NCBI GenBank assembly: GCA_040900055.1
Contig: JBBDZU010000006.1
Span: 19-64,018, forward strand
DNA length: 64,000 bases
Direction: 5' to 3'
Origin: Candidatus Saccharimonadales bacterium
Lineage (GTDB): Bacteria > Patescibacteriota > Saccharimonadia > Saccharimonadales > UBA10212
Shown: positions 3,402 through 63,247 of the stretch, in pieces
How positions within the stretch are numbered: the first letter of the stretch is position 1
How the letters are laid out: the number at the start of each line of letters is the position of its first letter
Notes under the pieces: model-generated
The model's input: only the letters and a program-made list of their open reading frames with translations
The model's database searches: none
What the model was told of the DNA's origin: nothing
Position numbers and translations under genes: made by a program

Positions 3402-4268
3402 CTAGAGCTTCATTTGCCGCAAATTGGCAATGCGGGATTCAACTGGCGGATGGGTACTGAAGAGGCCGGTGAGTGTCTTGCCTCGAAGCGGGTTAGCAAT
3501 GAACATGTGAGCCGTGGCAGTATTTTGATGTGTCTTTAGCTGACTTGCGCGGCCAATCTTTTCTAAAGCCCGAGCCAGACCTTCGGGGTAGCGCGTGGTT
3601 AAGGCGCCGGTAGCATCCGCCAAATATTCGCGGCGGCGGCTAATAGCCAGCTGCAGCATCATGGCGGCAATAGGGGCCAAAATAACCGCCACAATTGCCA
3701 GGATATAAAATAGCTGGTTGCCTTGCCGGTTGTCGCGTCCAAAAATTGTAATATGCCAGAAGAAATCGGCTATCATCGAGACAATCCCAACCAGGGCGAA
3801 TGCAATGGTGTTAACTCGCATGTCATAGTTTTTTATATGTCCCAGCTCATGGGCCATAACACCTTCCAGTTCGGTATCATCTAAGGCTTTAAGTAAACCG
3901 GTGGTTACACAAACAGCTGATTTATCGGGTTTACGACCGGTGGCAAAGGCGTTAAGCGCCGGATCGTCCATTATATAAACATTGGGCATCGGCAAGCCTT
4001 CGGTAATAGACAAATTTTCGACTATCCGCCATAAACGCGGGTCATCTTTTTTTTGAATTTCTTTGGCGCCGTTAATGGCCAGCGCCATTTTAGCGCCGGC
4101 AAAGTAGCTAAAGATAGCGTAGGCCAGTGAAAATAGCCCAATAAAAAATAGTAATCCTCGCTGACCGGTAGCTTGGCTGATAACGTAGGCAAAAGCCCAA
4201 AGCAGCAGCAAAAAACCGCTCAGCAGGAAGAATGTGCGTCGTTTATTGGCAGAAATCTGGTCGTACAT
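3402..4268 (-). CDS. htpX: Zn-metalloprotease HtpX (peptidase M48)
   Basis: 288 aa. 'HELGH' zinc motif between TM segments and a C-terminal 'STHPP' motif. Sits in a pair with lemA. Confidence 0.9.
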   Translation of the reverse strand: MYDQISANKRRTFFLLSGFLLLLWAFAYVISQATGQRGLLFFIGLFSLAYAIFSYFAGAKMALAINGAKEIQKKDDPRLWRIVENLSITEGLPMPNVYIMDDPALNAFATGRKPDKSAVCVTTGLLKALDDTELEGVMAHELGHIKNYDMRVNTIAFALVGIVSMIADFFWHITIFGRDNRQGNQLFYILAIVAVILAPIAAMMLQLAISRRREYLADATGALTTRYPEGLARALEKIGRASQLKTHQNTATAHMFIANPLRGKTLTGLFSTHPPVESRIANLRQMKL

Positions 4269-4291
4269 AAGCTTGGCCTTTCAGGAAGCGC

Positions 4292-4876
4292 TTAAGTTGA
4301 CTTGGAGTTTTTAGAGAAATCGGCTTTAACCGGCTGGCTAACCGCCGCAGCTTCGGCTTCCTCTACCTCGAAGAACTCGCGCTGTCTAAAGCCCATCAGC
4401 GAGGCAAAGATGTTAGTCGGGAACGACTGGATCTTAATGTTTAGGTCGCGGACGGCGCCGTTATAAAAGCGGCGGGCGGCTTGGATTTTATCCTCGGTAT
4501 CAACCAACTCGGCCTGCAGCTGCAAAAAGTTTTGGTTGGCTTTTAGGTCGGGATAGTTTTCGGCAACGGCAAACAAACTTTTTAAGGCCTGCTGGAATTG
4601 ATTGTCGGCCTCGGCTACCTCGCCCACGTTTTGGGCGTTCAGGGCTTGGGCGCGGGTTTCGGTAACTCGCTCAAAAACGGCTTTTTCGTGAGAGGCATAA
4701 CCCTTCACCGTGTTGATTAAATTGGGGATTAAATCGTAACGACGCTTCAACTGAACGGTTATGTCGCTCCAAGCTTCGTCAACTCGAATTTTAACTCTTA
4801 CTAAGCTGTTATAGATAAATATGACAGTAAGAATAACGACGCCAAAGACAATGGCTATGATGGTAGTAGTGGTCAT
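4292..4876 (-). CDS. lemA: LemA family membrane protein
   Basis: 194 aa. One N-terminal TM, then LemA-like helical repeats ('RRYDLIPNL', 'ENYPDLKA', 'RRFYN'). Confidence 0.85.
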   Translation of the reverse strand: MTTTTIIAIVFGVVILTVIFIYNSLVRVKIRVDEAWSDITVQLKRRYDLIPNLINTVKGYASHEKAVFERVTETRAQALNAQNVGEVAEADNQFQQALKSLFAVAENYPDLKANQNFLQLQAELVDTEDKIQAARRFYNGAVRDLNIKIQSFPTNIFASLMGFRQREFFEVEEAEAAAVSQPVKADFSKNSKST

Positions 4877-4958
4877 ATTGGTAATTATAACACTAATTTA
4901 CCCTGGTAACGCTGGTGTGCTACGTAAAACCTGTATCATATAAATAATTAGAGGGATT

Positions 4959-6131
4959 ATGGTCAAGAAACTATTAGCCACTTTTGTTGCAGTAGTTTTA
5001 GTCGTCGAGATAGTAGCTTTAGTTAGGCCTGCTCCTAAAATTATGCCCGCGGTTTTACAGCCTCAGCCGGCGGCTGCGGTGGCCGTAGATCTTCCCTGGC
5101 CAACTTACGGGCAAGCCGCTTTAGGGGCACAAGGGCATGGTCTACTGCAAACAAATGGTCAGCAAGCTCCGGTTCCGATCGCTAGCGTAACTAAGCTTAT
5201 TACGGCATTAGCGATATTAGAGAAAAAGCCTCTGGCTATTAACCGGCCCGGGCCATCAATCACACTCGATCAGGCAGACTTAGACTCTTTTAATTACTAT
5301 TACCTAAATGATGGCTCGGTCTCGGCTGTCAAAGCCGGGGAAACTATAACCCTGCAGCAGGCCTTATCGGCACTGCTTGTACCTTCGTCTAACAACATGG
5401 CAGACAGCCTTACACGCTGGGCTTTTGGCTCGCCTCAAGCTTACCTAGACTACGCCAACCAAATGGTCAAAAAACTGAACATGAAGCAAACAACTGTTAA
5501 AAGCGCGAGTGGGTTCTCTAACGAGACAACCAGCACCGCTACCGACTTGGTAACTTTGGGACAAGCTGTTTTAGCTAATCCGGTGCTGGCCGATATAGTC
5601 TCTAAAAAGAATGTCACTATCCCGGCGGGCGGAATGGTTAATAGCACTAATTGGCTTTTGGGGGTCGACAACATAATTGGCATTAAGACCGGCAACACAG
5701 ACATGGCCGGCGGCTGCTACCTCTTTGCAGCTAAACGGCCAATCCACGGGCAAGAGATTACTTTAATCGGAGCAGTTTTATCGGCTCCACAACTTACCGT
5801 GGCCATGCGTGATAGCCAGGGGCTTATCCGTTCGGCAAGCCAGGCCTTTAGTTTGGTAAAGCCAGTAGCCTCAGGTCAAGTTTTAGGGCAATATCGTACT
5901 CCCTGGGGAACTTCGGTCAAGGCTGTAGGCAGTAAAGATGTGTCGCTTTTAGTATGGCAGGGCCGAACGCCTAATGTAACTGTTGATATAGATACAGTTC
6001 GTCCCCCAGCAAAAGCTGGGCGGGCGGTTGGAACGGCGACCGCTGCTGCCGGCAGTCAGAGCTCAACCGTTCCTGTTATTTTAAAAGATGATTTGCCAGG
6101 GCCGGCCATAAGCTGGCGGCTCTGGCACTAA
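4959..6131 (+). CDS. D-alanyl-D-alanine carboxypeptidase (serine-type, PBP5/6 family)
   Basis: 390 aa. N-terminal anchor, SxxK ('SVTK'), SxN ('SSN') and KTG ('KTGNT') active-site motifs in canonical order. RBS AGAGGGA lies upstream. Confidence 0.85.
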   Translation: MVKKLLATFVAVVLVVEIVALVRPAPKIMPAVLQPQPAAAVAVDLPWPTYGQAALGAQGHGLLQTNGQQAPVPIASVTKLITALAILEKKPLAINRPGPSITLDQADLDSFNYYYLNDGSVSAVKAGETITLQQALSALLVPSSNNMADSLTRWAFGSPQAYLDYANQMVKKLNMKQTTVKSASGFSNETTSTATDLVTLGQAVLANPVLADIVSKKNVTIPAGGMVNSTNWLLGVDNIIGIKTGNTDMAGGCYLFAAKRPIHGQEITLIGAVLSAPQLTVAMRDSQGLIRSASQAFSLVKPVASGQVLGQYRTPWGTSVKAVGSKDVSLLVWQGRTPNVTVDIDTVRPPAKAGRAVGTATAAAGSQSSTVPVILKDDLPGPAISWRLWH

Positions 6132-6271: not shown

Positions 6272-6356
6272 TGGTGGGGATGAAAGGATTTGAACCTTCA
6301 CGCCTCACGGCACACGCTTCTGAAGCGTGCGTGTCTACCAATTCCACCACATCCCC
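6272..6356 (-). tRNA. tRNA-Leu (anticodon CAG)
   Basis: Hand-folded. Acceptor GGGGATG/CATCCCC, anticodon arm CACGC-TTCAGAA-GCGTG, long variable arm, T-arm with TTCAAAT loop, encoded CCA. 85 nt. Confidence 0.85.
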
Positions 6357-6461
6357 AGAGAAGATGTATACCAACCTGCCCCGAAGTGAGCTTGCTCTAC
6401 TTTGGGGTTTCACCACTGCGGCTGGTCAAAACCTACGCTATTAACTTGTCATGTACTAAGC

Positions 6462-6538
6462 TGGTGGGCGCTGAGGGACTCGAACCCCCGACCCTCTCGG
6501 TGTAAACGAGATGCTCTAGCCAACTGAGCTAAGCGCCC
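6462..6538 (-). tRNA. tRNA-Val (anticodon TAC)
   Basis: Acceptor GGGCGCT/AGCGCCC, D-arm GCTC-AGTTGGCTAG-AGC, anticodon arm TCTCG-TTTACAC-CGAGA, T-arm GGGGG-TTCGAGT-CCCTC, CCA. 77 nt. Confidence 0.9.
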
Positions 6539-6550
6539 GAGCAAAAGAGA

Positions 6551-6556
6551 TTATAA
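6551..6556 (-). promoter_or_regulatory. -10 box (TATAAT) for the minus-strand tRNA-Val/tRNA-Leu transcript
   Basis: Minus strand reads TTATAAT-CTCTTTTGCTC-GGGCGC(tRNA-Val 5' end), so the box is about 11 nt upstream of the mature 5' end. Confidence 0.4.
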
Positions 6557-6597
6557 CAGATTGGATGATATAATTTATACTGCTGTTTCTAAAGTGG

Positions 6598-6685
6598 GGG
6601 CGAGTGGCGAAATCTGGTAGACGCGCTAGATTGAGGTTCTAGTGGCCGCAAGGCTTTGGAGGTTCAAATCCTCTCTCGCCCACCA
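6598..6685 (+). tRNA. tRNA-Leu (anticodon GAG)
   Basis: Acceptor GGGCGAG/CTCGCCC, anticodon arm CTAGA-TTGAGGT-TCTAG, long variable arm, T-arm GGAGG-TTCAAAT-CCTCT, CCA. 88 nt. Confidence 0.85.
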
Positions 6686-6712
6686 TTTCTACAGATGTTA
6701 GAATTAAATGAC

Positions 6713-6788
6713 GGCGCTTTAGCTCAGTTGGTAGAGCAGAGGCTTGAAGAGCCTTGTGTCCCCAGTTCGAGTCTGGGAGGCGCCACCA
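6713..6788 (+). tRNA. tRNA-Phe (anticodon GAA)
   Basis: Acceptor GGCGCTT/AGGCGCC, D-arm GCTC-AGTTGGTAG-AGC, anticodon arm GAGGC-TTGAAGA-GCCTT, T-arm CCCAG-TTCGAGT-CTGGG, CCA. 76 nt. Confidence 0.9.
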
Positions 6789-6789
6789 C

Positions 6790-6866
6790 GCGGGTGTAGC
6801 TCAGTTGTTTAGAGCGTCTGCTTGCCATGCAGAAGGCCGTGGGTTAGAATCCCATCGCCCGCACCA
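6790..6866 (+). tRNA. tRNA-Gly (anticodon GCC)
   Basis: Acceptor GCGGGTG/CGCCCGC, anticodon arm TCTGC-TTGCCAT-GCAGA, T-arm GTGGG-TTAGAAT-CCCAT (A instead of the usual C in the TTCGAAT-type loop), CCA. Only 1 nt separates it from tRNA-Phe. Confidence 0.88.
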
Positions 6867-18903: not shown

Positions 18904-18977
18904 GGCACCGTGGCCGAGGAGTTAGGTAAAGGTCTGCAAAACCTTTTACGCGGGTGCGAATCCCGTCGGTGCCTCCA
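18904..18977 (+). tRNA. tRNA-Cys (anticodon GCA)
   Basis: Acceptor GGCACCG/CGGTGCC, 3-bp D-stem, anticodon arm AAGGT-CTGCAAA-ACCTT, T-arm GCGGG-TGCGAAT-CCCGT, discriminator U (a Cys identity element), CCA. 74 nt. Confidence 0.8.
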
Positions 18978-19063
18978 GGGCGAGTGCTGGAATGGTTTAC
19001 AGAGCGGACTTAAAATCCGTGCCCCGAAAGGGGTTGTGGGTTCGACTCCCACCTCGCCCACCA
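18978..19063 (+). tRNA. tRNA-Leu (anticodon TAA)
   Basis: Starts immediately after tRNA-Cys. Acceptor GGGCGAG/CTCGCCC, anticodon arm GCGGA-CTTAAAA-TCCGT, long variable arm (CCCC-GAAA-GGGG), T-arm GTGGG-TTCGACT-CCCAC, CCA. 86 nt. Confidence 0.85.
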
Positions 19064-32641: not shown

Positions 32642-33052
32642 TCAAGCTGACTGCCGCTGCTCTTTAGGTGTATTAAAAAAATCTTCTAAAATTATGGCGG
32701 CAGCCAGCGCGTCGATCCCGGAAGAGCGCCCTACTTTGCTAGTTTCTGCCGCTTTGGATGTTAAGGCTTCGTCTTGTAAGTAAAGCGGTATGTCAAATTT
32801 GGTTTTTAGCTTTTTTGCCCACTGGCGCACCGAAGCCGTTTGGGCAGTATCTTGACCTTCCAAGTTACGCGGTAGGCCGATTACGATGGCCGCCACCGGC
32901 TGGGTCTGTACAAGCTTTTCGATAGCGGAAAATGCCTCGGATACATTAACAGTCATTAAGGGTTCTGGAAGTTTTGCTAACGCAGAGGCCCGAGCAATAC
33001 CAACACGCTTAGTGCCCACATCCAGCGCTAGAATTTGTTCAACGGGGCTCAT
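32642..33052 (-). CDS. ruvX: Putative pre-16S rRNA nuclease / Holliday junction resolvase-like protein YqgF
   Basis: 136 aa. 'LALDVGTKRVGIA' and 'IVIGLPRNLEG...DEALTS' are RuvX/YqgF motifs. Confidence 0.85.
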   Translation of the reverse strand: MSPVEQILALDVGTKRVGIARASALAKLPEPLMTVNVSEAFSAIEKLVQTQPVAAIVIGLPRNLEGQDTAQTASVRQWAKKLKTKFDIPLYLQDEALTSKAAETSKVGRSSGIDALAAAIILEDFFNTPKEQRQSA

Positions 33053-34742
33053 CGGCGGCGGCAGTTTTATCGGCCGTGACAGTAACTGTAACTTTGCTAG
33101 CCTTCTTTGGCACCTTAGAAACCCAAAAAGGACTCAAGTGCACATCTACTTTTGTTACACCAGGTATCACGCCAATAGTGCTTTTAATATAACCGCTCTT
33201 TTGGCCCATCACCTGCTTTTCAACTGCATTTTTGTCGATGTTTGGTAAAACGTCGGTTTCAACGCCTATAGCTAGCACCGCCACGGTTGGTGACGATTGG
33301 CTTTGAACCGTTATATTAACGTCTTCCAGTACATTACCGCTTAATTGCTGATTATCTTGGTCTATTTGATTTTTAAGGTTATGGGTAATGGCTTCTTTAA
33401 GATGGTCTTTAGTAACCACTAAAACGCTATAGCTAACTTTAACCGTCACATTCGCTGTGCTGGTTTGTTGGCCAACGGCTGGCGTCGCGGTTACTTCGGC
33501 GTCAGAAATTTTTAAGGTTGGGATAATCACAAAAAACCCTTCATCGCTTAATGACTTTTGGAAATCCTGGGAGAATTTGTCGGAGGCGGCTGAGGTAATT
33601 TCTTCCTTAACCTTGTCCACATCCTGTTGGCTTAAAACCGTCACGTTATTGTCGGTCCCTCCCGACAATGCACTAGGGTTGGTGGCCGAGACATTGCTAT
33701 AACCAACCACTGCAAATGAAGAGTTAGCACCAACATTATAGGCGCTACCGCCTTGCTGGGCGACAATATCGGTAGAGCTAGTCGAAGGATAGTTTATACA
33801 GCTGTCACTGACAGTGCCTGATGAGCTGAAGCTGGTATTTTCTTGGGTTATAAATGTCAGACCCTTGGTGGTGAGCCCGGTGCCCGCAGGGACGCTCGAA
33901 GGCGGCTGGATAGTTCCACAAACCTGGTAGGTCATATTAACGGCGCCAGTGGCTTTTTTGCCTAAATTCTGTTGGCCAGTTGCCTGGATGTCTTTTTTGG
34001 CAGTTTGGTCTGATTTTTTAAGCTGCACAGGAATGATGCCCTGCCCTTTGTCTAGTTCTTTAGCAGTGTCGGAGGTGGTTAAGTTAAAATTACCCGAAAA
34101 TGGTGTACTGGTAGTCTGAATGGCGATAGTCGCTTTAGGCAGCACAAAAATCGCAAATATAATAAAGGTAATTAAGGCGATCAGTCCTAGAATACCTAGG
34201 CCCAAAAGCAAGCGAAAACGGTCAAAATTAGGCACTTTTAACTTTTTATTTTTGGGCGGTTTAACGGGAGTTTTATCTGTTTTTGATTCGTCATCATCGG
34301 CAAGCGCAATAGCCTCTGACGCATCATTGGAGTAGGATGCCGCAAGCTCGCCAATCGGGCGCTCATAGTCAATTTTAGCCGGCATTTCTTGGTCAGGATC
34401 CGCCGGCGTAGACGGGCTGGGGGTAGCAGCTTCGGGCTGGGATGGAACATGGGCAGAAGCTTCCAAGCTTTTGGCTACCGGCAAACCGGCCGCTCCGGCC
34501 AGCGGCATCAGGGCTGACTCGCTAGTAACCAAGACTACTTTTTTGTTGGCGTTTTTGGCGCTACGGGCCAGTAAGCGCATGTTAACTATGCTTTGAAGGA
34601 CAACGGCCCGTTTTGGTAATACTAAAGCAATTTCTTTGCTGCCAGAGGCTTCTACTTTAGAGATAATAGAGGTAATATCATCTTCGACATCTATGTAAAT
34701 AGTGTCTTTGGCTGGTTTGGGTGATGTTTTAGCTTCAGTCAT
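33039..34742 (-). CDS. Large single-pass membrane protein, function unknown
   Basis: 567 aa. Cytoplasmic N-domain, Pro/acidic linker, TM ('LLLGLGILGLIALITFIIFAIFVL') and a Thr/Ser-rich exodomain. 4-nt overlap with the ftsA-like gene suggests a division or envelope operon. Confidence 0.5.
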   Translation of the reverse strand: MTEAKTSPKPAKDTIYIDVEDDITSIISKVEASGSKEIALVLPKRAVVLQSIVNMRLLARSAKNANKKVVLVTSESALMPLAGAAGLPVAKSLEASAHVPSQPEAATPSPSTPADPDQEMPAKIDYERPIGELAASYSNDASEAIALADDDESKTDKTPVKPPKNKKLKVPNFDRFRLLLGLGILGLIALITFIIFAIFVLPKATIAIQTTSTPFSGNFNLTTSDTAKELDKGQGIIPVQLKKSDQTAKKDIQATGQQNLGKKATGAVNMTYQVCGTIQPPSSVPAGTGLTTKGLTFITQENTSFSSSGTVSDSCINYPSTSSTDIVAQQGGSAYNVGANSSFAVVGYSNVSATNPSALSGGTDNNVTVLSQQDVDKVKEEITSAASDKFSQDFQKSLSDEGFFVIIPTLKISDAEVTATPAVGQQTSTANVTVKVSYSVLVVTKDHLKEAITHNLKNQIDQDNQQLSGNVLEDVNITVQSQSSPTVAVLAIGVETDVLPNIDKNAVEKQVMGQKSGYIKSTIGVIPGVTKVDVHLSPFWVSKVPKKASKVTVTVTADKTAAADEPR

Positions 34743-36055
34743 ACCTTGAGGACCTTATTTAAGCGGGTTTTAAGCGAGATATCGGCGGGGGCCGCCCCCG
34801 AGTTAATGGTGTCCATGCCCACTCTAAGTAATCCCATGGCTGTTATAAAGGTATGATCAGTAACGTCGCCGGTGCTGTCTTTTATACCAACGACTTCGTC
34901 GGGCCGAATGTGCTTAACCGTAGGCTTACGGGTAAAAGGCAGGCTACGATACCAGTCGCCAGTCTCTAGCCTGTCCATAAGCATTTGTAAGGATGAGCCA
35001 CCGCCACATAGCAGTATCCGGTGGGGTAGATGATCTAATTTTGTAAATTCGGCCAGGGCTAGCTCTACCCCTGAAATCCAAACATTCAAGGTCTTCTCCA
35101 AGGCCTTTATAACTTGCTCTTTTTGGGGTGAGGCGGGCCCATCGGAGGCTAAATCTAGCTTTAAGGCCTCGGCTTTAGCAAAATCGACATCTAAATCACG
35201 CTCTATAGCGTGACTGTAAGCGCGGCCGCCAATGCCAAACATTTTAGTACCTTCTACGCCGCCTTCATTAACCACTGCAATATCGGTAGTACCCCCACCA
35301 ACGTCCATAAGCACGGCGCTAACAGAGGTATTAGGGTCGTCACCAACCATAGAGCGGGCCACTGCAAAAGGCTCAGCTGCTACTGCCAAAAGTTCCAAGT
35401 CAAGCTCTGTAGCGGTTCGTTCCAAAGCCCCAATATGGATCATTGGCGCAAAGGCCGTGTACATTTCTACCACCAAATCACGTCCCTGAAACCCCACAGG
35501 GTTAGTCACTTTATAGCCGTCAATTTCCATGCGGGTTAGAGCGCTGTTAACTAGTCTAACCTGCACATCTTTGCCACCTAGTTCCCAGGCTAGGTCGTGA
35601 CGGGCTTTGGCTTCGGCCCGTTCCTGGACTAACTCAATAATTCGCTCCATCTCATCAATAGAAAGCTCCTTGGTAGGGTTGCTACGCGTAAAACGTACTG
35701 TAGAGGTGGTACCTTTAACTAGCTCGCCGGCTATCCCAATTACTACTGAGCGGGAACTTACCCCCGATTGCTCTTCGGCAGCCGCCAATGCCTTATCGCA
35801 GTTGGCGGTCACAGCAGCAATATCGGCAATAGCTCCAGCTTGCATGTCTGTTAGTTCCTGGTGGGCGCGGCCTACCCCTATAATTTCTACCTCGTTGCCA
35901 ACCACTCGACCAACTAAAGCTTTAATAAATTCGGTGCCAATGTCTAAGGCTACCATATACTGTCCCACCGGACGGTTGCTTCGAGCATGGGAACTAGTTG
36001 GTATCTTGTCCTTTAGCGTGCTGTTTAGGTCTTTAAACTTATCCAGTATGGCCAT
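34739..36055 (-). CDS. ftsA: Actin-like ATPase of the FtsA/PilM family
   Basis: 438 aa. Phosphate-1 'VALDIGTEFIKA' and phosphate-2 'DVGGGTTDIAVV'. FtsA-like size, but no obvious C-terminal amphipathic helix. Confidence 0.7.
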   Translation of the reverse strand: MAILDKFKDLNSTLKDKIPTSSHARSNRPVGQYMVALDIGTEFIKALVGRVVGNEVEIIGVGRAHQELTDMQAGAIADIAAVTANCDKALAAAEEQSGVSSRSVVIGIAGELVKGTTSTVRFTRSNPTKELSIDEMERIIELVQERAEAKARHDLAWELGGKDVQVRLVNSALTRMEIDGYKVTNPVGFQGRDLVVEMYTAFAPMIHIGALERTATELDLELLAVAAEPFAVARSMVGDDPNTSVSAVLMDVGGGTTDIAVVNEGGVEGTKMFGIGGRAYSHAIERDLDVDFAKAEALKLDLASDGPASPQKEQVIKALEKTLNVWISGVELALAEFTKLDHLPHRILLCGGGSSLQMLMDRLETGDWYRSLPFTRKPTVKHIRPDEVVGIKDSTGDVTDHTFITAMGLLRVGMDTINSGAAPADISLKTRLNKVLKV

Positions 36056-36112
36056 CTGTTATAACCTTGGTTAATTGTAGCACAGGGGGTTATAGCGTCG
36101 ACGCGGCAACTA

Positions 36113-36141
36113 TTGACAAATGTAATCATAAGTTGTATTAT
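36113..36141 (+). promoter_or_regulatory. Near-consensus sigma70-type promoter TTGACA-17-TATTAT
   Basis: TTGACA at 36113-36118, a 17-nt spacer, TATTAT at 36136-36141. Oriented toward the high-GC ORF at 36234. Confidence 0.55.
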
Positions 36142-36233
36142 CTGCTAGTTCAAGGCCAAGAAAGTTTTGGACGCACATTTCATTTTCAAGTCCCTAGACT
36201 TCAACCGTCCACTGGGCGAGAAAGGCAGGCTTC

Positions 36234-36572
36234 ATGTCTGCTAAGAGCAAGAGAAACCGACTGGCCACAGCCCTCGGCTTGATCTGGATCTACGCCGAGC
36301 TCATCATCGAGCGCAACGAGGAGCTGATGGCGCACATGGCCACCTTCGGCCGCCGGCTGTGTGTCGGCGGTCTCGTGTCCCTCGCGGTCCTCGCATTCCT
36401 GACCGTGCCCGACTTCCAAGGCGGCGACATCTTGCTGCCGGCGACCGCCATTGCGTGGCTCGTGACGTCGTTGGCGCTCGTGGGTTTGGGGGTCCTCATC
36501 TTCGCCTACTCCCAGATCAAACAGGGAGGCAAGGCCAAGCAGCAAAAGCGGATCCAGGCCCAACAGCAGTAG
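36234..36572 (+). CDS. Small two-TM membrane protein encoded in a high-GC insert
   Basis: 112 aa. Nearly every codon ends in G/C (high GC3). Two hydrophobic helices and a Lys/Gln-rich tail. The overlapping ORFs in other frames are Arg-rich, as expected for high-GC antisense artefacts. Confidence 0.6.
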   Translation: MSAKSKRNRLATALGLIWIYAELIIERNEELMAHMATFGRRLCVGGLVSLAVLAFLTVPDFQGGDILLPATAIAWLVTSLALVGLGVLIFAYSQIKQGGKAKQQKRIQAQQQ

Positions 36573-36584
36573 TCCGCAGCATCC

Positions 36585-36624
36585 GAGGTGGAGGGTCGAG
36601 CGCGAAAGCTCTCTCCTCCACCTC
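36585..36624 (+). terminator. Strong GC-rich hairpin after the high-GC ORF
   Basis: Perfect 10-bp stem GAGGTGGAGG/CCTCCACCTC enclosing an inner GAGC-GCGAAA-GCTC hairpin. Only a weak T-tract follows. Confidence 0.45.
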
Positions 36625-36704
36625 AAGAGTTTGCTATCTCGGGACGGTACTCGCGCCAAGCGTCGCGACAATAGGGTGAGGAGCCCTAACGCCAGGAGGC
36701 AGCC

Positions 36705-36780
36705 ATGTCTTCCAGTGAACCGAGCACTGGTTGGCCACCTCCCCCCATTCCTGAGCTTATTGCGCGGGAATGGGGTATTT
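36705..36780 (+). pseudogene. Possible 5' gene fragment truncated at the right edge of the high-GC insert
   Basis: RBS-like CCAGGAGGCAGCC-ATG, then high-GC codons ('MSSSEPSTGWPPPPIPELIAREWG'). The frame then runs antisense into the alaS 3' end at normal GC. Confidence 0.25.
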
Positions 36781-36782
36781 TT

Positions 36783-38660
36783 TTATTGCAAAACAGCTTT
36801 TATACGACGTACACCGGCGGACGAAGCTTCTTGTTTTATAATCTTAAACTGCCTGCCACTCTCACCTATTTGGCCGGTATGTTCCACATGTGGTCCGCCA
36901 CAAATTTCACGACTAAAAGGGTTTGCGGGGTCGCCAATGCTATAGACTTTCACGGTATCGCCATATTTATCACCAAAGGCTCCGCTGGCACCGCTATCTA
37001 ATGCTTCTTCGGTTGGTTCTTCCCGCCACGTGACGGGTAGATCTTGCTTTATCTTTTCGTTTACTAGCTCTTCGACATCCTTAACTTGCTCCGGCGTTAA
37101 CTTTTCCGGATGGGCAAAGTCAAAGCGAATACGCTCTGGCGTAATATTGCTGCCGCGTTGGGTTACCTTAGGCCCCAGTACGTCTTTTAAGGCTTGGTAC
37201 ATCAAATGAGTAGCCGTGTGCAGTTTAACTACCTCGTCGGAATGGTCTGCCAACCCACCCTTAAACATCCCTGCACTAGCTGTTTGAGAGCGGATACGCT
37301 GATGGGTCATTGCGGCTTCAAAATCTTGGTCAAAGTCTCCTGCAATTTCTATACCGCGCTTCTTAGCTTCTTCTTTTGAAAGTTCAATCGGGAACCCGTA
37401 GGTGTCATATAGCTTAAAACCATCATAACCCATAAAAATTTTCTTTTTTTCATGCTTACCATCAAGACTATGAACGTCATACAGAGTGCCTGTCATTTTT
37501 TCAAATTCTTTAAGACCTTTTCGGAGGGTTTGGCGGAACAGTTTCTCTTCTTTAGAAAAAGCAGCGAAGACGACTTTTTCTTGGGCTTTAGTCTCAGGAA
37601 AGTCTTTAGCGTAGGTTTCGATGACTATTTTTGCAACTTTTTCGCATAAACCGTGCTTTAGCCCCAGTTCGTGGCCATAGCGAATGGCTCTGCGGAGCAA
37701 GCGACGCAAAACATAGCCTTGAGCCTTGTTGCTTGGCACAACCCCGTCTGCGGTCAACCAAGTGGCAGCTCGCAGATGGTCGGCAATCACACGCATGCTG
37801 ATTTGATGATCTGCATACTTTTTGCCGCTTTGTTTTTCTAATTCATCTAGTATCGGTTTTATAAGACTGATTTGGAAAATATCTGGATTGTCGTTCTTGG
37901 CAGCTGCTAGCCGCTCCAAACCTCCACCAAAATCGACATTTGGTTTAGGTAGCTCCTCAAAGCCTTTGGCATTTTTTTTGTATGCCATAAAGACACTGTT
38001 GCCGATTTCTAAAAAGCGGCCGCACTCACAGTTCGGGTGGCAGTGCGCACCAAATTTATTGTCGTGCTCAACTTGGGTAAATTCATAAAATACTTCACTA
38101 TCTGGACCGCCTGGCTCACCTTCGCGCATATTGGCTGGCTCGCCTTCACGGCTCCACCAGTTTTTATCCGCACCATAAAACTTAATTCTGTCTTTAGGAA
38201 CACCTAATTCTTCCCAAATGGCCGCCGATTCCTCGTCCCGCGGCAAATTAAGTTCTTTATCCCCTTCAAAGCAGGTTACCCAAAGTTTTTCCTTCGGTAA
38301 CCCCAATTCTTTAGTCAGAAATTCCCAAACCCATGGTAGCTGTTCGGCTTTGTAATAATCCCCCAAGCTCCAGTTACCAAGCATCTCAAAAAAGGTAGTG
38401 TGGCGATTGTCGCCAACCTCGTCCATGTCTTCGGCTCTAAAGCAGGTTTGGCTGTTAACCAGGCGCGTACCCTGCGGGTGCGTCTGGCCAAGCAGGTATG
38501 GAATTAGCGGCTGCATGCCGCTACCTGTAAACAAAGTGGTGGGATCGTCCTCGAGTACTAAAGACGCTCGCTGTATAACCTTGTGTTTTTTATCAGCAAA
38601 AAACTCTAAGTAAGCTTTCCTGATTTCCTGTGCCGTCATTAGCCTTATGTTAGCAAACAA
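36783..38660 (-). CDS. alaS: Alanine--tRNA ligase (short form lacking the C-Ala domain)
   Basis: 625 aa. Class II catalytic core ('FTGSGMQP', 'RHTTFFEMLGNWS') and editing-domain motifs ('HTATHL', 'CGGPHV'). Ends right after the editing domain. Confidence 0.95.
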   Translation of the reverse strand: MFANIRLMTAQEIRKAYLEFFADKKHKVIQRASLVLEDDPTTLFTGSGMQPLIPYLLGQTHPQGTRLVNSQTCFRAEDMDEVGDNRHTTFFEMLGNWSLGDYYKAEQLPWVWEFLTKELGLPKEKLWVTCFEGDKELNLPRDEESAAIWEELGVPKDRIKFYGADKNWWSREGEPANMREGEPGGPDSEVFYEFTQVEHDNKFGAHCHPNCECGRFLEIGNSVFMAYKKNAKGFEELPKPNVDFGGGLERLAAAKNDNPDIFQISLIKPILDELEKQSGKKYADHQISMRVIADHLRAATWLTADGVVPSNKAQGYVLRRLLRRAIRYGHELGLKHGLCEKVAKIVIETYAKDFPETKAQEKVVFAAFSKEEKLFRQTLRKGLKEFEKMTGTLYDVHSLDGKHEKKKIFMGYDGFKLYDTYGFPIELSKEEAKKRGIEIAGDFDQDFEAAMTHQRIRSQTASAGMFKGGLADHSDEVVKLHTATHLMYQALKDVLGPKVTQRGSNITPERIRFDFAHPEKLTPEQVKDVEELVNEKIKQDLPVTWREEPTEEALDSGASGAFGDKYGDTVKVYSIGDPANPFSREICGGPHVEHTGQIGESGRQFKIIKQEASSAGVRRIKAVLQ

Positions 38661-54137: not shown

Positions 54138-54529
54138 TGGTGGAGCTGGTGGGTACTACCCCCACGTCCGATTGATAACAGGCTAAGCGACTACAGGTTT
54201 ATATCGTTTAAAGTTTCTTTGCTTTATAAGCCCTTGGAACGATCAAAAAAGGCTTTAAGCGCAGTCCAATAAGCTTAGCTTCTCGCGGCGGACTACCACG
54301 AATAAGCGCAGTCAGAAATATGACACACTGCTAGCCTATCTGACATTGGTTAGAGTATGGCTCTAGACTTAAGCTAGAGCTGGTGCGAAAACCGGCATGC
54401 GAAACATGCTGGCTACGCGATCAAATGCTTTGGCATTTAATGTTGTTGCACTCGGCTAACGTGCAAGTGCGAACCGACCTGCCGCAAAAGCTTGTTAAAG
54501 TTCAACCGTCGAGCTTAAAATTCAGCCCC
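54138..54529 (-). ncRNA. ssrA: tmRNA (ssrA)
   Basis: Minus strand starts GGGGCTGAATTTTAAGCTCGAC and ends GGACGTGGGGGTAGTACCCACCAGCTCCACCA. The acceptor GGGGCTG/CAGCTCC includes a G3:U pair. An internal tag frame GCC AAA GCA ... CCA GCT CTA GCT TAA encodes ...PALA. About 392 nt. Confidence 0.8.
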
Positions 54530-59311: not shown

Positions 59312-60442
59312 TCAGTTGGTGGTAACTGATTGGGCGACTTTTTGCACTAACGATTTTAATTCTGTTTTTGCATTATCAACGGCAACCGCTACACCGGGAT
59401 AGACGGCTCCATCTGTATTCACTACGACTTCATATACGGAGACCGCATCAAGCCCGGTATGCGTAACTGCTAAATATTCACTCTGATCATATTTAAGTTC
59501 TTGAGCATCTTTAATTTGATTTTTATCAGAAATCCAATTTGAATAAAATAGATTACCTTCTTTACGATAACCTGCTCCATATAAAACACTGGCCCCGCCT
59601 ATAGGCGCTTCAAAATCAGTCGTCCAAGACTTCATTTCTACATCTTCTGTAGCTGCAAATACAAAACTCACTAAGCGGCCATTTGTGCCATCAAGCTCAT
59701 CCAATTCAACCTCCCCCCATTCTTCTGGATAGGCGAATTTAAAACCAAGGTCTTTATTCTCGTACCATACCCAGTTTGCTGGGAGCTCAAATTCTTCCTC
59801 CGCAGGAGTAATAACAGGCTGCTGGGCTACCGGTGTAGATTTTTTGAAGAATTCATAAGGGAGTTTGGTGCTGGTGAAGGCATCTACAGCAGCGTAAGCT
59901 CCAGCCAAAATTATCAAAACCAAAACACTCCAAAGCAATAATGTGCGAAAGCGTCGCTTTTTACCGGCAGGCAAGCTAGAGCCTGACGCAAAAAGTGGGT
60001 GCGATTCAACCTTAGCTTGCAAATCTGGTGCGGGCATAGGTTGGTGAGGGACTGCAGCGACCGCGGGAGCTGTGGACCCTGGAGCGATCATCCCGCCTGG
60101 CAATGCGGGTGTTTCGCTGGCAATTGTTGGCTGAGTATCAAGCTGCGGCAAGTTCTCACTTGGCATTTGAGGCATGGGCTCTGGGATGGGGGCTGGAATG
60201 GTTGGCTCAGCAGGAACAGCAGGCGCTACAGACACAGGAACATAATGGGTTGCCGAATCATCACCCACGTTAACCGGCTGGGGAGCGTTTTCCCGCACCA
60301 TGGGATCGTTCATTATGGGCTGGTGGCCAACTATAATTGGGCGGCTAGTTGGGCTTGGTTCAACGTTAGCCGGACGGCTAACGTCAAAAACCTGTGATTT
60401 GTCGTCATCTTTTGGCACTAGCCCTCCCCTTTGCGCTGCCAC
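59312..60442 (-). CDS. Pro-rich single-pass membrane protein, function unknown
   Basis: 376 aa. A disordered Pro/Ala-rich N-half, a TM ('LLLWSVLVLIILAGAYAAV') and a C-terminal exodomain of about 190 aa. Confidence 0.45.
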   Translation of the reverse strand: MAAQRGGLVPKDDDKSQVFDVSRPANVEPSPTSRPIIVGHQPIMNDPMVRENAPQPVNVGDDSATHYVPVSVAPAVPAEPTIPAPIPEPMPQMPSENLPQLDTQPTIASETPALPGGMIAPGSTAPAVAAVPHQPMPAPDLQAKVESHPLFASGSSLPAGKKRRFRTLLLWSVLVLIILAGAYAAVDAFTSTKLPYEFFKKSTPVAQQPVITPAEEEFELPANWVWYENKDLGFKFAYPEEWGEVELDELDGTNGRLVSFVFAATEDVEMKSWTTDFEAPIGGASVLYGAGYRKEGNLFYSNWISDKNQIKDAQELKYDQSEYLAVTHTGLDAVSVYEVVVNTDGAVYPGVAVAVDNAKTELKSLVQKVAQSVTTN

Positions 60443-63171: not shown

Positions 63172-63247
63172 GGCCCCATCGTCTAGTGGCCTAGGACACC
63201 AGGTTTTCATCCTGGAAACGGGGGTTCGATTCCCCCTGGGGTCACCA
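63172..63247 (+). tRNA. tRNA-Glu (anticodon TTC)
   Basis: Acceptor GGCCCCA/TGGGGTC, D-arm GTC-TAGTGGCCTAG-GAC, anticodon arm CCAGG-TTTTCAT-CCTGG, T-arm GGGGG-TTCGATT-CCCCC, CCA. 76 nt. Confidence 0.9.

Follow-up and report, generated by a model that had tools for sequence, protein, structure and literature searches.

In Patescibacteria, both horizontal gene transfer (HGT) and genomic islands are common, genomic islets occupy HGT hotspots, and 83% of the transfers detected in aquifer Patescibacteria take place within the phylum (PMC12455944). A second system of interest is host-to-epibiont transfer in Saccharibacteria, naturally competent bacteria that grow on Actinobacteria; cultivated Saccharibacteria integrate DNA by recombination (PMC10633639). 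A third is the integron cassette with its resident promoter, Pc. Here we describe a locus in a 64-kb stretch of DNA from a Candidatus Saccharimonadales bacterium (64,000 nucleotides, hereafter the window), in which a high-GC island carrying one intact gene, orf112, lies in the gap between alaS and an ftsA-like gene (hereafter the slot; Table 1). With a probability of roughly 0.7, we propose that a segment of about 0.5-0.55 kb in this slot was horizontally acquired from a GC-richer pool. The acquisition was probably recent.

When GC was computed in 300-nt windows sliding over the full 64 kb, the island (36185-36775) was the strongest GC outlier of the stretch, with 0.64 against 0.467 (standard deviation (sd) 0.041) for the window. 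Values of 0.60-0.64 extended across positions 36151-36750, and the rest of the 64 kb peaked at about 0.58. At a 60-nt scale, GC climbs from about 36185 and falls sharply past 36775, 8 bases before the alaS stop codon. These profiles, together with that of GC at third codon positions (GC3), bear out the jump in composition that a preliminary description of this DNA had reported between the ftsA-like gene and alaS; its hand counts of 27/60, 35/60 and 39/60 G+C were exact on recount. Its remark that all six frames become open was approximately right, as stop codons are sparse in the island, but the frames are not stop-free: they contain 1-7 stops per 500 nt, compared with up to 19 in control stretches. 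No paralogue or repeat of the island was found elsewhere in the window.

A three-base periodicity of GC, with 0.83-0.97 at third positions, is restricted to orf112. The GC of this gene at the first, second and third codon positions (GC1, GC2 and GC3) is 0.60, 0.41 and 0.87, in line with the preliminary statement that almost every codon of the frame ends in G or C. Native genes, represented by the 40 open reading frames (ORFs) of at least 200 aa in the window, average a GC3 of 0.464±0.040 and reach 0.535 at most, which places orf112 about 10 sd above them; both flanking genes are of native composition (Table 1). Because of the GC3 periodicity, the excess of GC3 over GC1 and the low GC2, the gene appears to have been shaped in a much GC-richer genome. 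An effect of amino-acid composition as the cause of the high GC was dismissed on the basis of the third-position periodicity.

The same composition might instead reflect a resident feature, either a structured RNA or a native gene whose high GC is maintained by selection or by a local bias in mutation. We regard this explanation as highly improbable. The combination of GC periodicity, low GC2 and an ORF that follows the positive-inside rule indicates protein coding, and Rfam yielded no RNA family over the island, either at gathering thresholds or at E<=10. The region 36570-36790 does fold far better than shuffled sequence (z -4.4), and high-GC3 genes without donors recur at this locus, as described below; against a local bias or selection, highly expressed native genes such as those of the ATP synthase show no elevation of GC3, and the feature is absent in more than 90% of the relatives. 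Nor were repeats of the template/variable (TR/VR) type, a sign of diversity-generating retroelements, found.

To place the island among its relatives, 160 loci of Saccharimonadales (labelled L001, L002 and so on) were collected via the FtsA-like protein, 80 from species-level genomes and 80 from metagenome contigs, with FtsA identities of 62-81%; the closest syntenic relative is L001, with 81%. Neither tblastn nor blastn found a match of orf112 in the 160 loci. The protein searches covered 5.8 billion clusters with a word-indexed method, which returned only the self match MEX2006856.1 (a metagenome-assembled genome of Candidatus Saccharimonadales, 80-kb contig), and 1.84 billion representatives with an exhaustive phmmer search, which returned only orf112 itself. 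An exact-sequence contig look-up gave no record, plasmids and phages gave no match by tblastn and blastn, an exact 33-mer of the island was absent from the GTDB species genomes, and the hairpin pattern was absent from JGI metagenome contigs. Two candidates on viral contigs were chance matches, with 24-residue seeds in 36%-GC DNA and a frame containing stop codons. Among family profiles, nothing rose above threshold in Pfam (DUF202, 16.9 bits vs a cutoff of 23.4) or PHROGs (phrog_5405, E 0.043), and NCBIfam returned noise only.

The GC3 of host genes in the 160 relatives, taken as ftsA and alaS combined, ranges from 0.28 to 0.76. The value of orf112 lies above this maximum, and the source pool was therefore GC-richer than the Saccharimonadales sampled. 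Since Saccharibacteria attach to high-GC Actinobacteria and take up DNA, orf112 is a candidate for a host-to-epibiont or mobile-element transfer. Its leucine codons (CTC 8, CTG 5, TTG 4) are compatible with Actinomycetota. The same preference would equally suit several other high-GC phyla, and 112 codons are too few for leucine usage to discriminate donor phyla. No donor can be named, and an actinobacterial host as the source is hypothetical.

The gene stands behind a predicted promoter of the sigma70 type. A scan of the region detected four promoter-like sites vs 0.4 expected. The site at 36113-36141 has a -35/-10 spacing of 17 nt, within the 16-18 nt of sigma70-type promoters, and the GC around it is host-like (0.35-0.45). 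Around this site the block GCAAC..TTGACAAnTGTAAnCAnAAG..GTAT is common to the window and L002/L084. Divergent promoters lie at an equal distance from the ftsA start in L001 (TTGACT-17-TATTAT) and L011 (TTGACG-17-TATAAT), so that L002/L084, L001 and L011 all have the TTGACA block or an equivalent divergent promoter, at 41-57 nt from the ftsA start. The predicted promoter is thus resident DNA, homologous or equivalent to that of relatives, as the preliminary description had supposed when it placed a near-consensus promoter in native DNA. The promoter of the ftsA-like gene itself has a TGnTAYAAT box that is conserved in L001, L004 and L012 and likewise in alignment A3. An alignment of window positions 36106-36141 with L002:5895-6003 further showed that the conserved -35 block (GCAAC..TTGACAAnTGTAA) contains a nearly palindromic sequence (L002, ACAATTGT; window, ACAAATGT), which could be a regulator site shared by the two divergent promoters.

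The slot of L001 (L001:80-340, 263 bp) has the same order of parts with a different cargo: a promoter, a GGAGGTG motif, a 35-aa highly acidic ORF (MRFEDDAPDSNYPDDDRPDTSPTGEDPSDDHPTND), a GC hairpin and the alaS stop. This conserved architecture around a different gene supports the view that the native promoter drives orf112.

Downstream of orf112, the preliminary description had seen a GC hairpin. The hairpin is present, with an outer stem measured at 11 bp, an inner stem of 4 bp, a folding free energy of -28.6 kcal/mol and a z of -5.3, and may be a terminator that the transferred gene brought with it. Further on, the hairpin at 36743-36775 (-24.1 kcal/mol, z -4.5) has the form of a rho-independent terminator on the + strand, where the U-run and the alaS stop codon (36783-36785) overlap; read on the - strand it is not followed by a U-tract. 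This terminal hairpin beside alaS may be resident, as L001 has one likewise, and the foreign segment would then narrow to about 36190/36240-36742. Between the two hairpins, a second high-GC gene broken off at alaS had also been proposed. An AGGAGG at 36694-36699 and an ATG at 36705 do exist in the spacer; a coding signature does not. The 24 codons from 36705 show no coding periodicity and have a GC3 of 11/24 (0.46; P=2e-6 under the codon style of orf112), and codons 13-24 form the stem of the terminator. We therefore rejected the truncated gene, and the stretch after 36694 is better read as a 3' untranslated region plus intrinsic terminator.

Taken together, the composition, the absence of orf112 from the 160 loci and the counterparts of the promoter in relatives sustain the earlier proposal of a foreign fragment with one intact gene under a resident promoter. 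As in an islet, the composition deviates and the segment is absent from syntenic sites; an identifiable donor and a mobility signature (integrase or transposase, tRNA target, direct repeats) were not found. The slot supplies a predicted sigma70-type promoter, back to back with that of ftsA, and ends in the hairpin abutting the alaS stop. A transcript may start near 36148 and run through an 85-nt leader and orf112 to the terminator at 36743-36787, which would leave little antisense transcription into alaS. The DNA would most likely have entered through uptake by natural competence and may have been integrated by illegitimate recombination or by recombination facilitated by homology in the flanks. 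Site-specific integration is not indicated, because the island lacks a recombinase gene, a tRNA gene, paired attC cores and flanking repeats above chance level. DNA uptake with subsequent recombination, either illegitimate or through homology in the flanks, would be the most economical way in.

These negative observations have the following extent. No mobility gene occurs among the annotated neighbours within 9 kb on either side, and Pfam scans revealed no intI or other recombinase among the ORFs of 24.4-44 kb, the rest of the window not being scanned. Paired attC cores R'' (RYYYAAC) and R' (GTTRRRY) are absent from both strands of 36150-36800. Flanking direct or inverted repeats that could represent insertion scars occur at chance level only; one of them, at 36203/36718, is an 11/13 repeat. 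No tRNA gene lies within 17 kb of the island; ARAGORN predicted eight tRNA genes in the window (6272-6866, 18904-19063 and 63172-63247).

Several points weigh against a recent acquisition from outside. With no donor or homologue in any collection, it is composition and phyletic pattern that carry the foreign origin. Recency is read from the lack of amelioration, because the relatives include no near-isogenic empty site and the closest FtsA is 81% identical. The expression of orf112 and the insertion of its product into the membrane are predictions. High-GC3 genes recur in the same slot and on the same strand, unlike what random illegitimate insertion would give. Finally, the source is a metagenome-assembled genome, with the protein known from a single contig, and a high-GC fragment of the same metagenome might have been spliced into the contig during assembly. 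Such an artefact seems very unlikely to us: it would need two chimeric joins within 600 bp, exactly between the syntenic alaS and ftsA, whereas the island is a coherent unit of resident promoter, leader, complete ORF and a terminator whose U-run is the native end of alaS. In addition, equivalent islands stand at this slot in a complete chromosome (L011) and on an 810-kb contig (L050).

In 128 of the 160 loci, alaS is found directly upstream of ftsA, at a distance of 35 bp to 5.9 kb (median 677 bp), and gaps of at least 250 bp contain unrelated ORFs, mostly without a detectable relative in other gaps. Because its length is variable and its content heterogeneous, the alaS-ftsA junction is a hypervariable hotspot across Saccharimonadales. 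For a survey of GC islands in the relatives, ±4-6 kb around ftsA was covered (0.96 Mb in total), with a cut-off of GC at least 0.14 above the local median. All three islands at this cut-off (in the window, L011 and L050) lie in the alaS-ftsA gap, which makes up 7.8% of the surveyed sequence (P ~5e-4). Lower-contrast cases were seen in L034, L110, L117, L121, L143 and L155, on the strand opposite to ftsA, with raised GC3 and mostly encoding small proteins with several transmembrane (TM) segments. Opposite-strand ORFs of the gap with at least two TM segments have a mean GC3 0.16 above that of the host genes, and same-strand ORFs are offset by about -0.02 to -0.07. In all, analogous, non-homologous high-GC3 genes without donor matches occupy the slot in about 10 of 128 relatives. 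The preliminary description had considered that homologues of the same high GC, with no donor match, might be present at this locus throughout the lineage; there are no homologues, and this concern is touched in part by the analogous genes. Since such genes recur there, the orf112 event is one instance of a recurrent property of the slot.

The two other islands differ in content. L011 is a complete 669-kb Saccharibacteria chromosome (OZ246413.1) with a 0.65-kb island at 5176-5950, 150 nt upstream of ftsA and on the opposite strand, where GC is 0.68-0.71 vs 0.45 for the genome. Its 174-aa ORF (5333-5857) has a GC3 of 0.95, against 0.42 for the genome; its product looks soluble, and the protein database contains no homologue of it. 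On the contig of L050 (DATFHW010000025.1), a 2.1-kb block at 3700-5800 with GC 0.63-0.69 fills the gap and contains opposite-strand multi-TM ORFs of 217 aa (3 TM) and 102 aa (2 TM). Its GC3 periodicity changes frame at about 4600 and 4950, which suggests several small genes or decaying ones.

One detectable pair of homologues exists among the opposite-strand high-GC3 cargo: L110:2849-3184 and L117:2505-3041 encode proteins of 26% identity, in loci whose FtsA and AlaS are 78-79% identical. A profile of the pair found no further relatives in the 5.8-billion-cluster database. Because a GC3 of 0.79-0.84 persists at 26% identity, repeated entry of the cargo into the slot from a related pool is likely, rather than vertical descent.

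This pair, with the architecture shared by L001 and the within-phylum share of transfers cited above for aquifer Patescibacteria, could also point to a cassette-like pool circulating among Saccharimonadales, with the slot, equipped with a resident promoter and terminator, as a dedicated exchange site. Transformation and recombination within the conserved flanks would swap small genes there, most of them encoding membrane proteins, and the immediate source of orf112 would be another Saccharimonadales or its mobile elements rather than a host actinobacterium. The GC3 offset of the opposite-strand ORFs with at least two TM segments fits such exchange, as do the examples of L011, L050, L110, L117, L121, L155, L143 and L034. 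We consider it unlikely, as orf112 has no similarity to other slot cargo by BLASTP or hhalign, and the cargo GC3 of 0.87-0.95 exceeds the host maximum of the clade, which puts the ultimate source outside the sampled Saccharimonadales. Moreover, recombinase, attC and repeat signatures are missing, the pattern is found in only about 10 of 128 loci, and the specificity for the slot holds within the ±4-6 kb surveyed, not genome-wide. Kinship of orf112 with an architecturally similar 111-aa protein of L110, or with the L110/L117 profile, was tried and no relationship was found.

A broader proposal, to which we give a small chance, is that the slot is a recombinase-free dedicated capture and expression site that repeatedly takes small high-GC orphan genes, mostly for membrane proteins, via natural transformation. 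Its two ends would be formed by the conserved divergent promoter and by the hairpin at the alaS stop. The cargo could come from the epibionts' high-GC hosts or their mobile elements. If this were true, the cargo could bear on the interaction of epibiont and host envelopes.

Two further groups of slot proteins were noticed. The gaps of L024, L050, L073 and L155 contain, on the opposite strand, three-TM proteins of ~160-220 aa that by eye appear to share an architecture, in which an outer loop of 35-50 aa with two cysteines separates TM1 from TM2 and a cytoplasmic loop separates TM2 from TM3. BLAST found no similarity among them; they may be a fast-evolving family. The second group is a family of ~330-380 aa with native composition, on the ftsA strand in 17 loci (L002, L003, L007, L008, L016, L020 and 11 others). 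Its members have a TM segment at each terminus and, between the two, a GGxxPYxxxxxWGDG motif that by eye is reminiscent of a PKD or Ig-like domain. This family is absent from the window.

The product of orf112 is predicted to be a small inner-membrane protein. Its hydropathy shows two clear TM segments, at residues 42-58 and 66-92, linked by the short acidic loop PDFQGGD, which would lie on the outer side. The N-terminus is basic (4 K/R), as is the C-terminal tail (5 K/R), and residues 10-25 form an amphipathic helix of borderline hydrophobicity. Under the positive-inside rule, this fits a TM hairpin with both termini inside, and hydropathy and charge distribution agree with the two-TM 112-aa protein suggested earlier. 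The AlphaFold model, computed from the single sequence, is all-helical with three helices (pLDDT, the predicted local distance difference test score, 72). The protein is probably accessory or near-neutral cargo at the membrane.

Table 1 Features of the alaS-ftsA locus, in positions of the window.
Feature	Position	Strand	Basis
ftsA-like gene (actin fold), left flank, native composition	34739..36055	-	Pfam FtsA, E 2.8e-11; GC3 0.48
Predicted promoter of ftsA, TCGACG-16-TACAAT, extended -10 TG	36074..36101	-	Promoter scan
Predicted sigma70-like divergent promoter, TTGACA-17-TATTAT, into the island	36113..36141	+	11/12 consensus positions
High-GC island	36185..36775	.	Composition profiles; no counterpart in relatives
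Weak Shine-Dalgarno-like sequence GAAAGGCAGG (AAGG/AGG), 4-8 nt 5' of ATG	36220..36229	+	Read from sequence
orf112, orphan gene of a predicted 112-aa two-TM protein (MEX2006856.1 / WD877_01670)	36234..36572	+	GC3 0.87, periodicity, hydropathy, charge
Stem-loop 12 nt past the orf112 stop, no U-tract	36585..36624	+	Inverted repeat; folding
GC-rich (~0.6) non-coding spacer, ~118 nt	36625..36742	+	No codon periodicity; no Rfam match
Predicted intrinsic terminator, hairpin 36743-36775 then UAUUUUUUUAUU	36743..36787	+	Inverted repeat; folding
alaS, right flank, native composition	36783..38660	-	Pfam tRNA-synt_2c, E 2.6e-121; GC3 0.44

For 9 kb to either side, the island is surrounded by housekeeping genes, which without exception lie on the - strand. 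The neighbours are uvrA, an exonuclease gene, obg, a gene for a CHAP/LysM protein, mltG, ruvX, a 567-aa ORF, the ftsA-like gene, alaS, mnmA and ATP synthase genes. Over the 23 kb of 24443-47102, orf112 is the sole + strand gene, all other substantial genes lying on the - strand. The stop of the ftsA-like gene and the start of the 567-aa ORF overlap by 4 nt (34739-34742). The longest alaS ORF begins with TTG at 38640-38660 (MFANIRLMTAQEIRK...) and the relatives begin with MTAQEIRK; the true alaS start is probably the ATG seven codons downstream, at about 38639. Two lesser GC bumps (0.58-0.60) elsewhere in the window, at 34300-34600 and 59951-60350, lie inside ORFs of native composition and were rejected as foreign DNA. 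The first is a Pro/Ala/Ser/Thr-rich stretch of the native 567-aa ORF (33039-34742), and the second a Pro/Ala-rich (also Ser/Thr) N-terminal region of a native 376-aa ORF (59312-60442). Far from the island, a tmRNA gene at 54138-54529 (-) was recognised by Rfam (RF00023, 79 bits) and missed by ARAGORN.

Among known systems, class II holins and the DUF202/YidH proteins resemble the predicted product of orf112 in that they have two TM helices and a basic C-terminal tail and keep both ends inside. The matches to them are sub-threshold and there is no lysis-gene context, so that the likeness is one of topology only. Integron cassettes are alike in being foreign, in often consisting of an orphan ORF with a stem-loop, in using a promoter of the recipient site and in carrying cargo that varies between lineages. 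In contrast to them, the present locus has no intI within ±9 kb, no R''/R' attC pair and one cassette rather than an array, and it does not belong to the integron cassette family. Host-to-epibiont transfer in Saccharibacteria (PMC10633639) shares with our case the recipient lineage, a plausible uptake route and a GC compatible with actinobacterial DNA, and differs in that no actinobacterial or other homologue was found here.

The closest likeness is to the genomic islets in HGT hotspots (PMC12455944), which are the same in atypical composition, absence in relatives, core-gene flanks, variable content and orphan cargo. The island described here differs from them in carrying a single gene, in its very small size and in lacking an integrase, a tRNA gene and direct repeats; its cargo is GC-richer than the recipient, and its slot has a conserved promoter. 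Most genomic islands are AT-richer than the recipient. As a single event, the acquisition belongs to ordinary bacterial genome dynamics, and its type, an orphan islet of small size gained horizontally at an HGT hotspot, is already known. The main added value is that, across Saccharimonadales, high-GC orphan genes turn up repeatedly in this slot. The alaS-ftsA gap thereby offers a defined locus for studying the acquisition of foreign DNA by Candidate Phyla Radiation (CPR) bacteria, and may serve as a natural neutral expression site for genetic tools.

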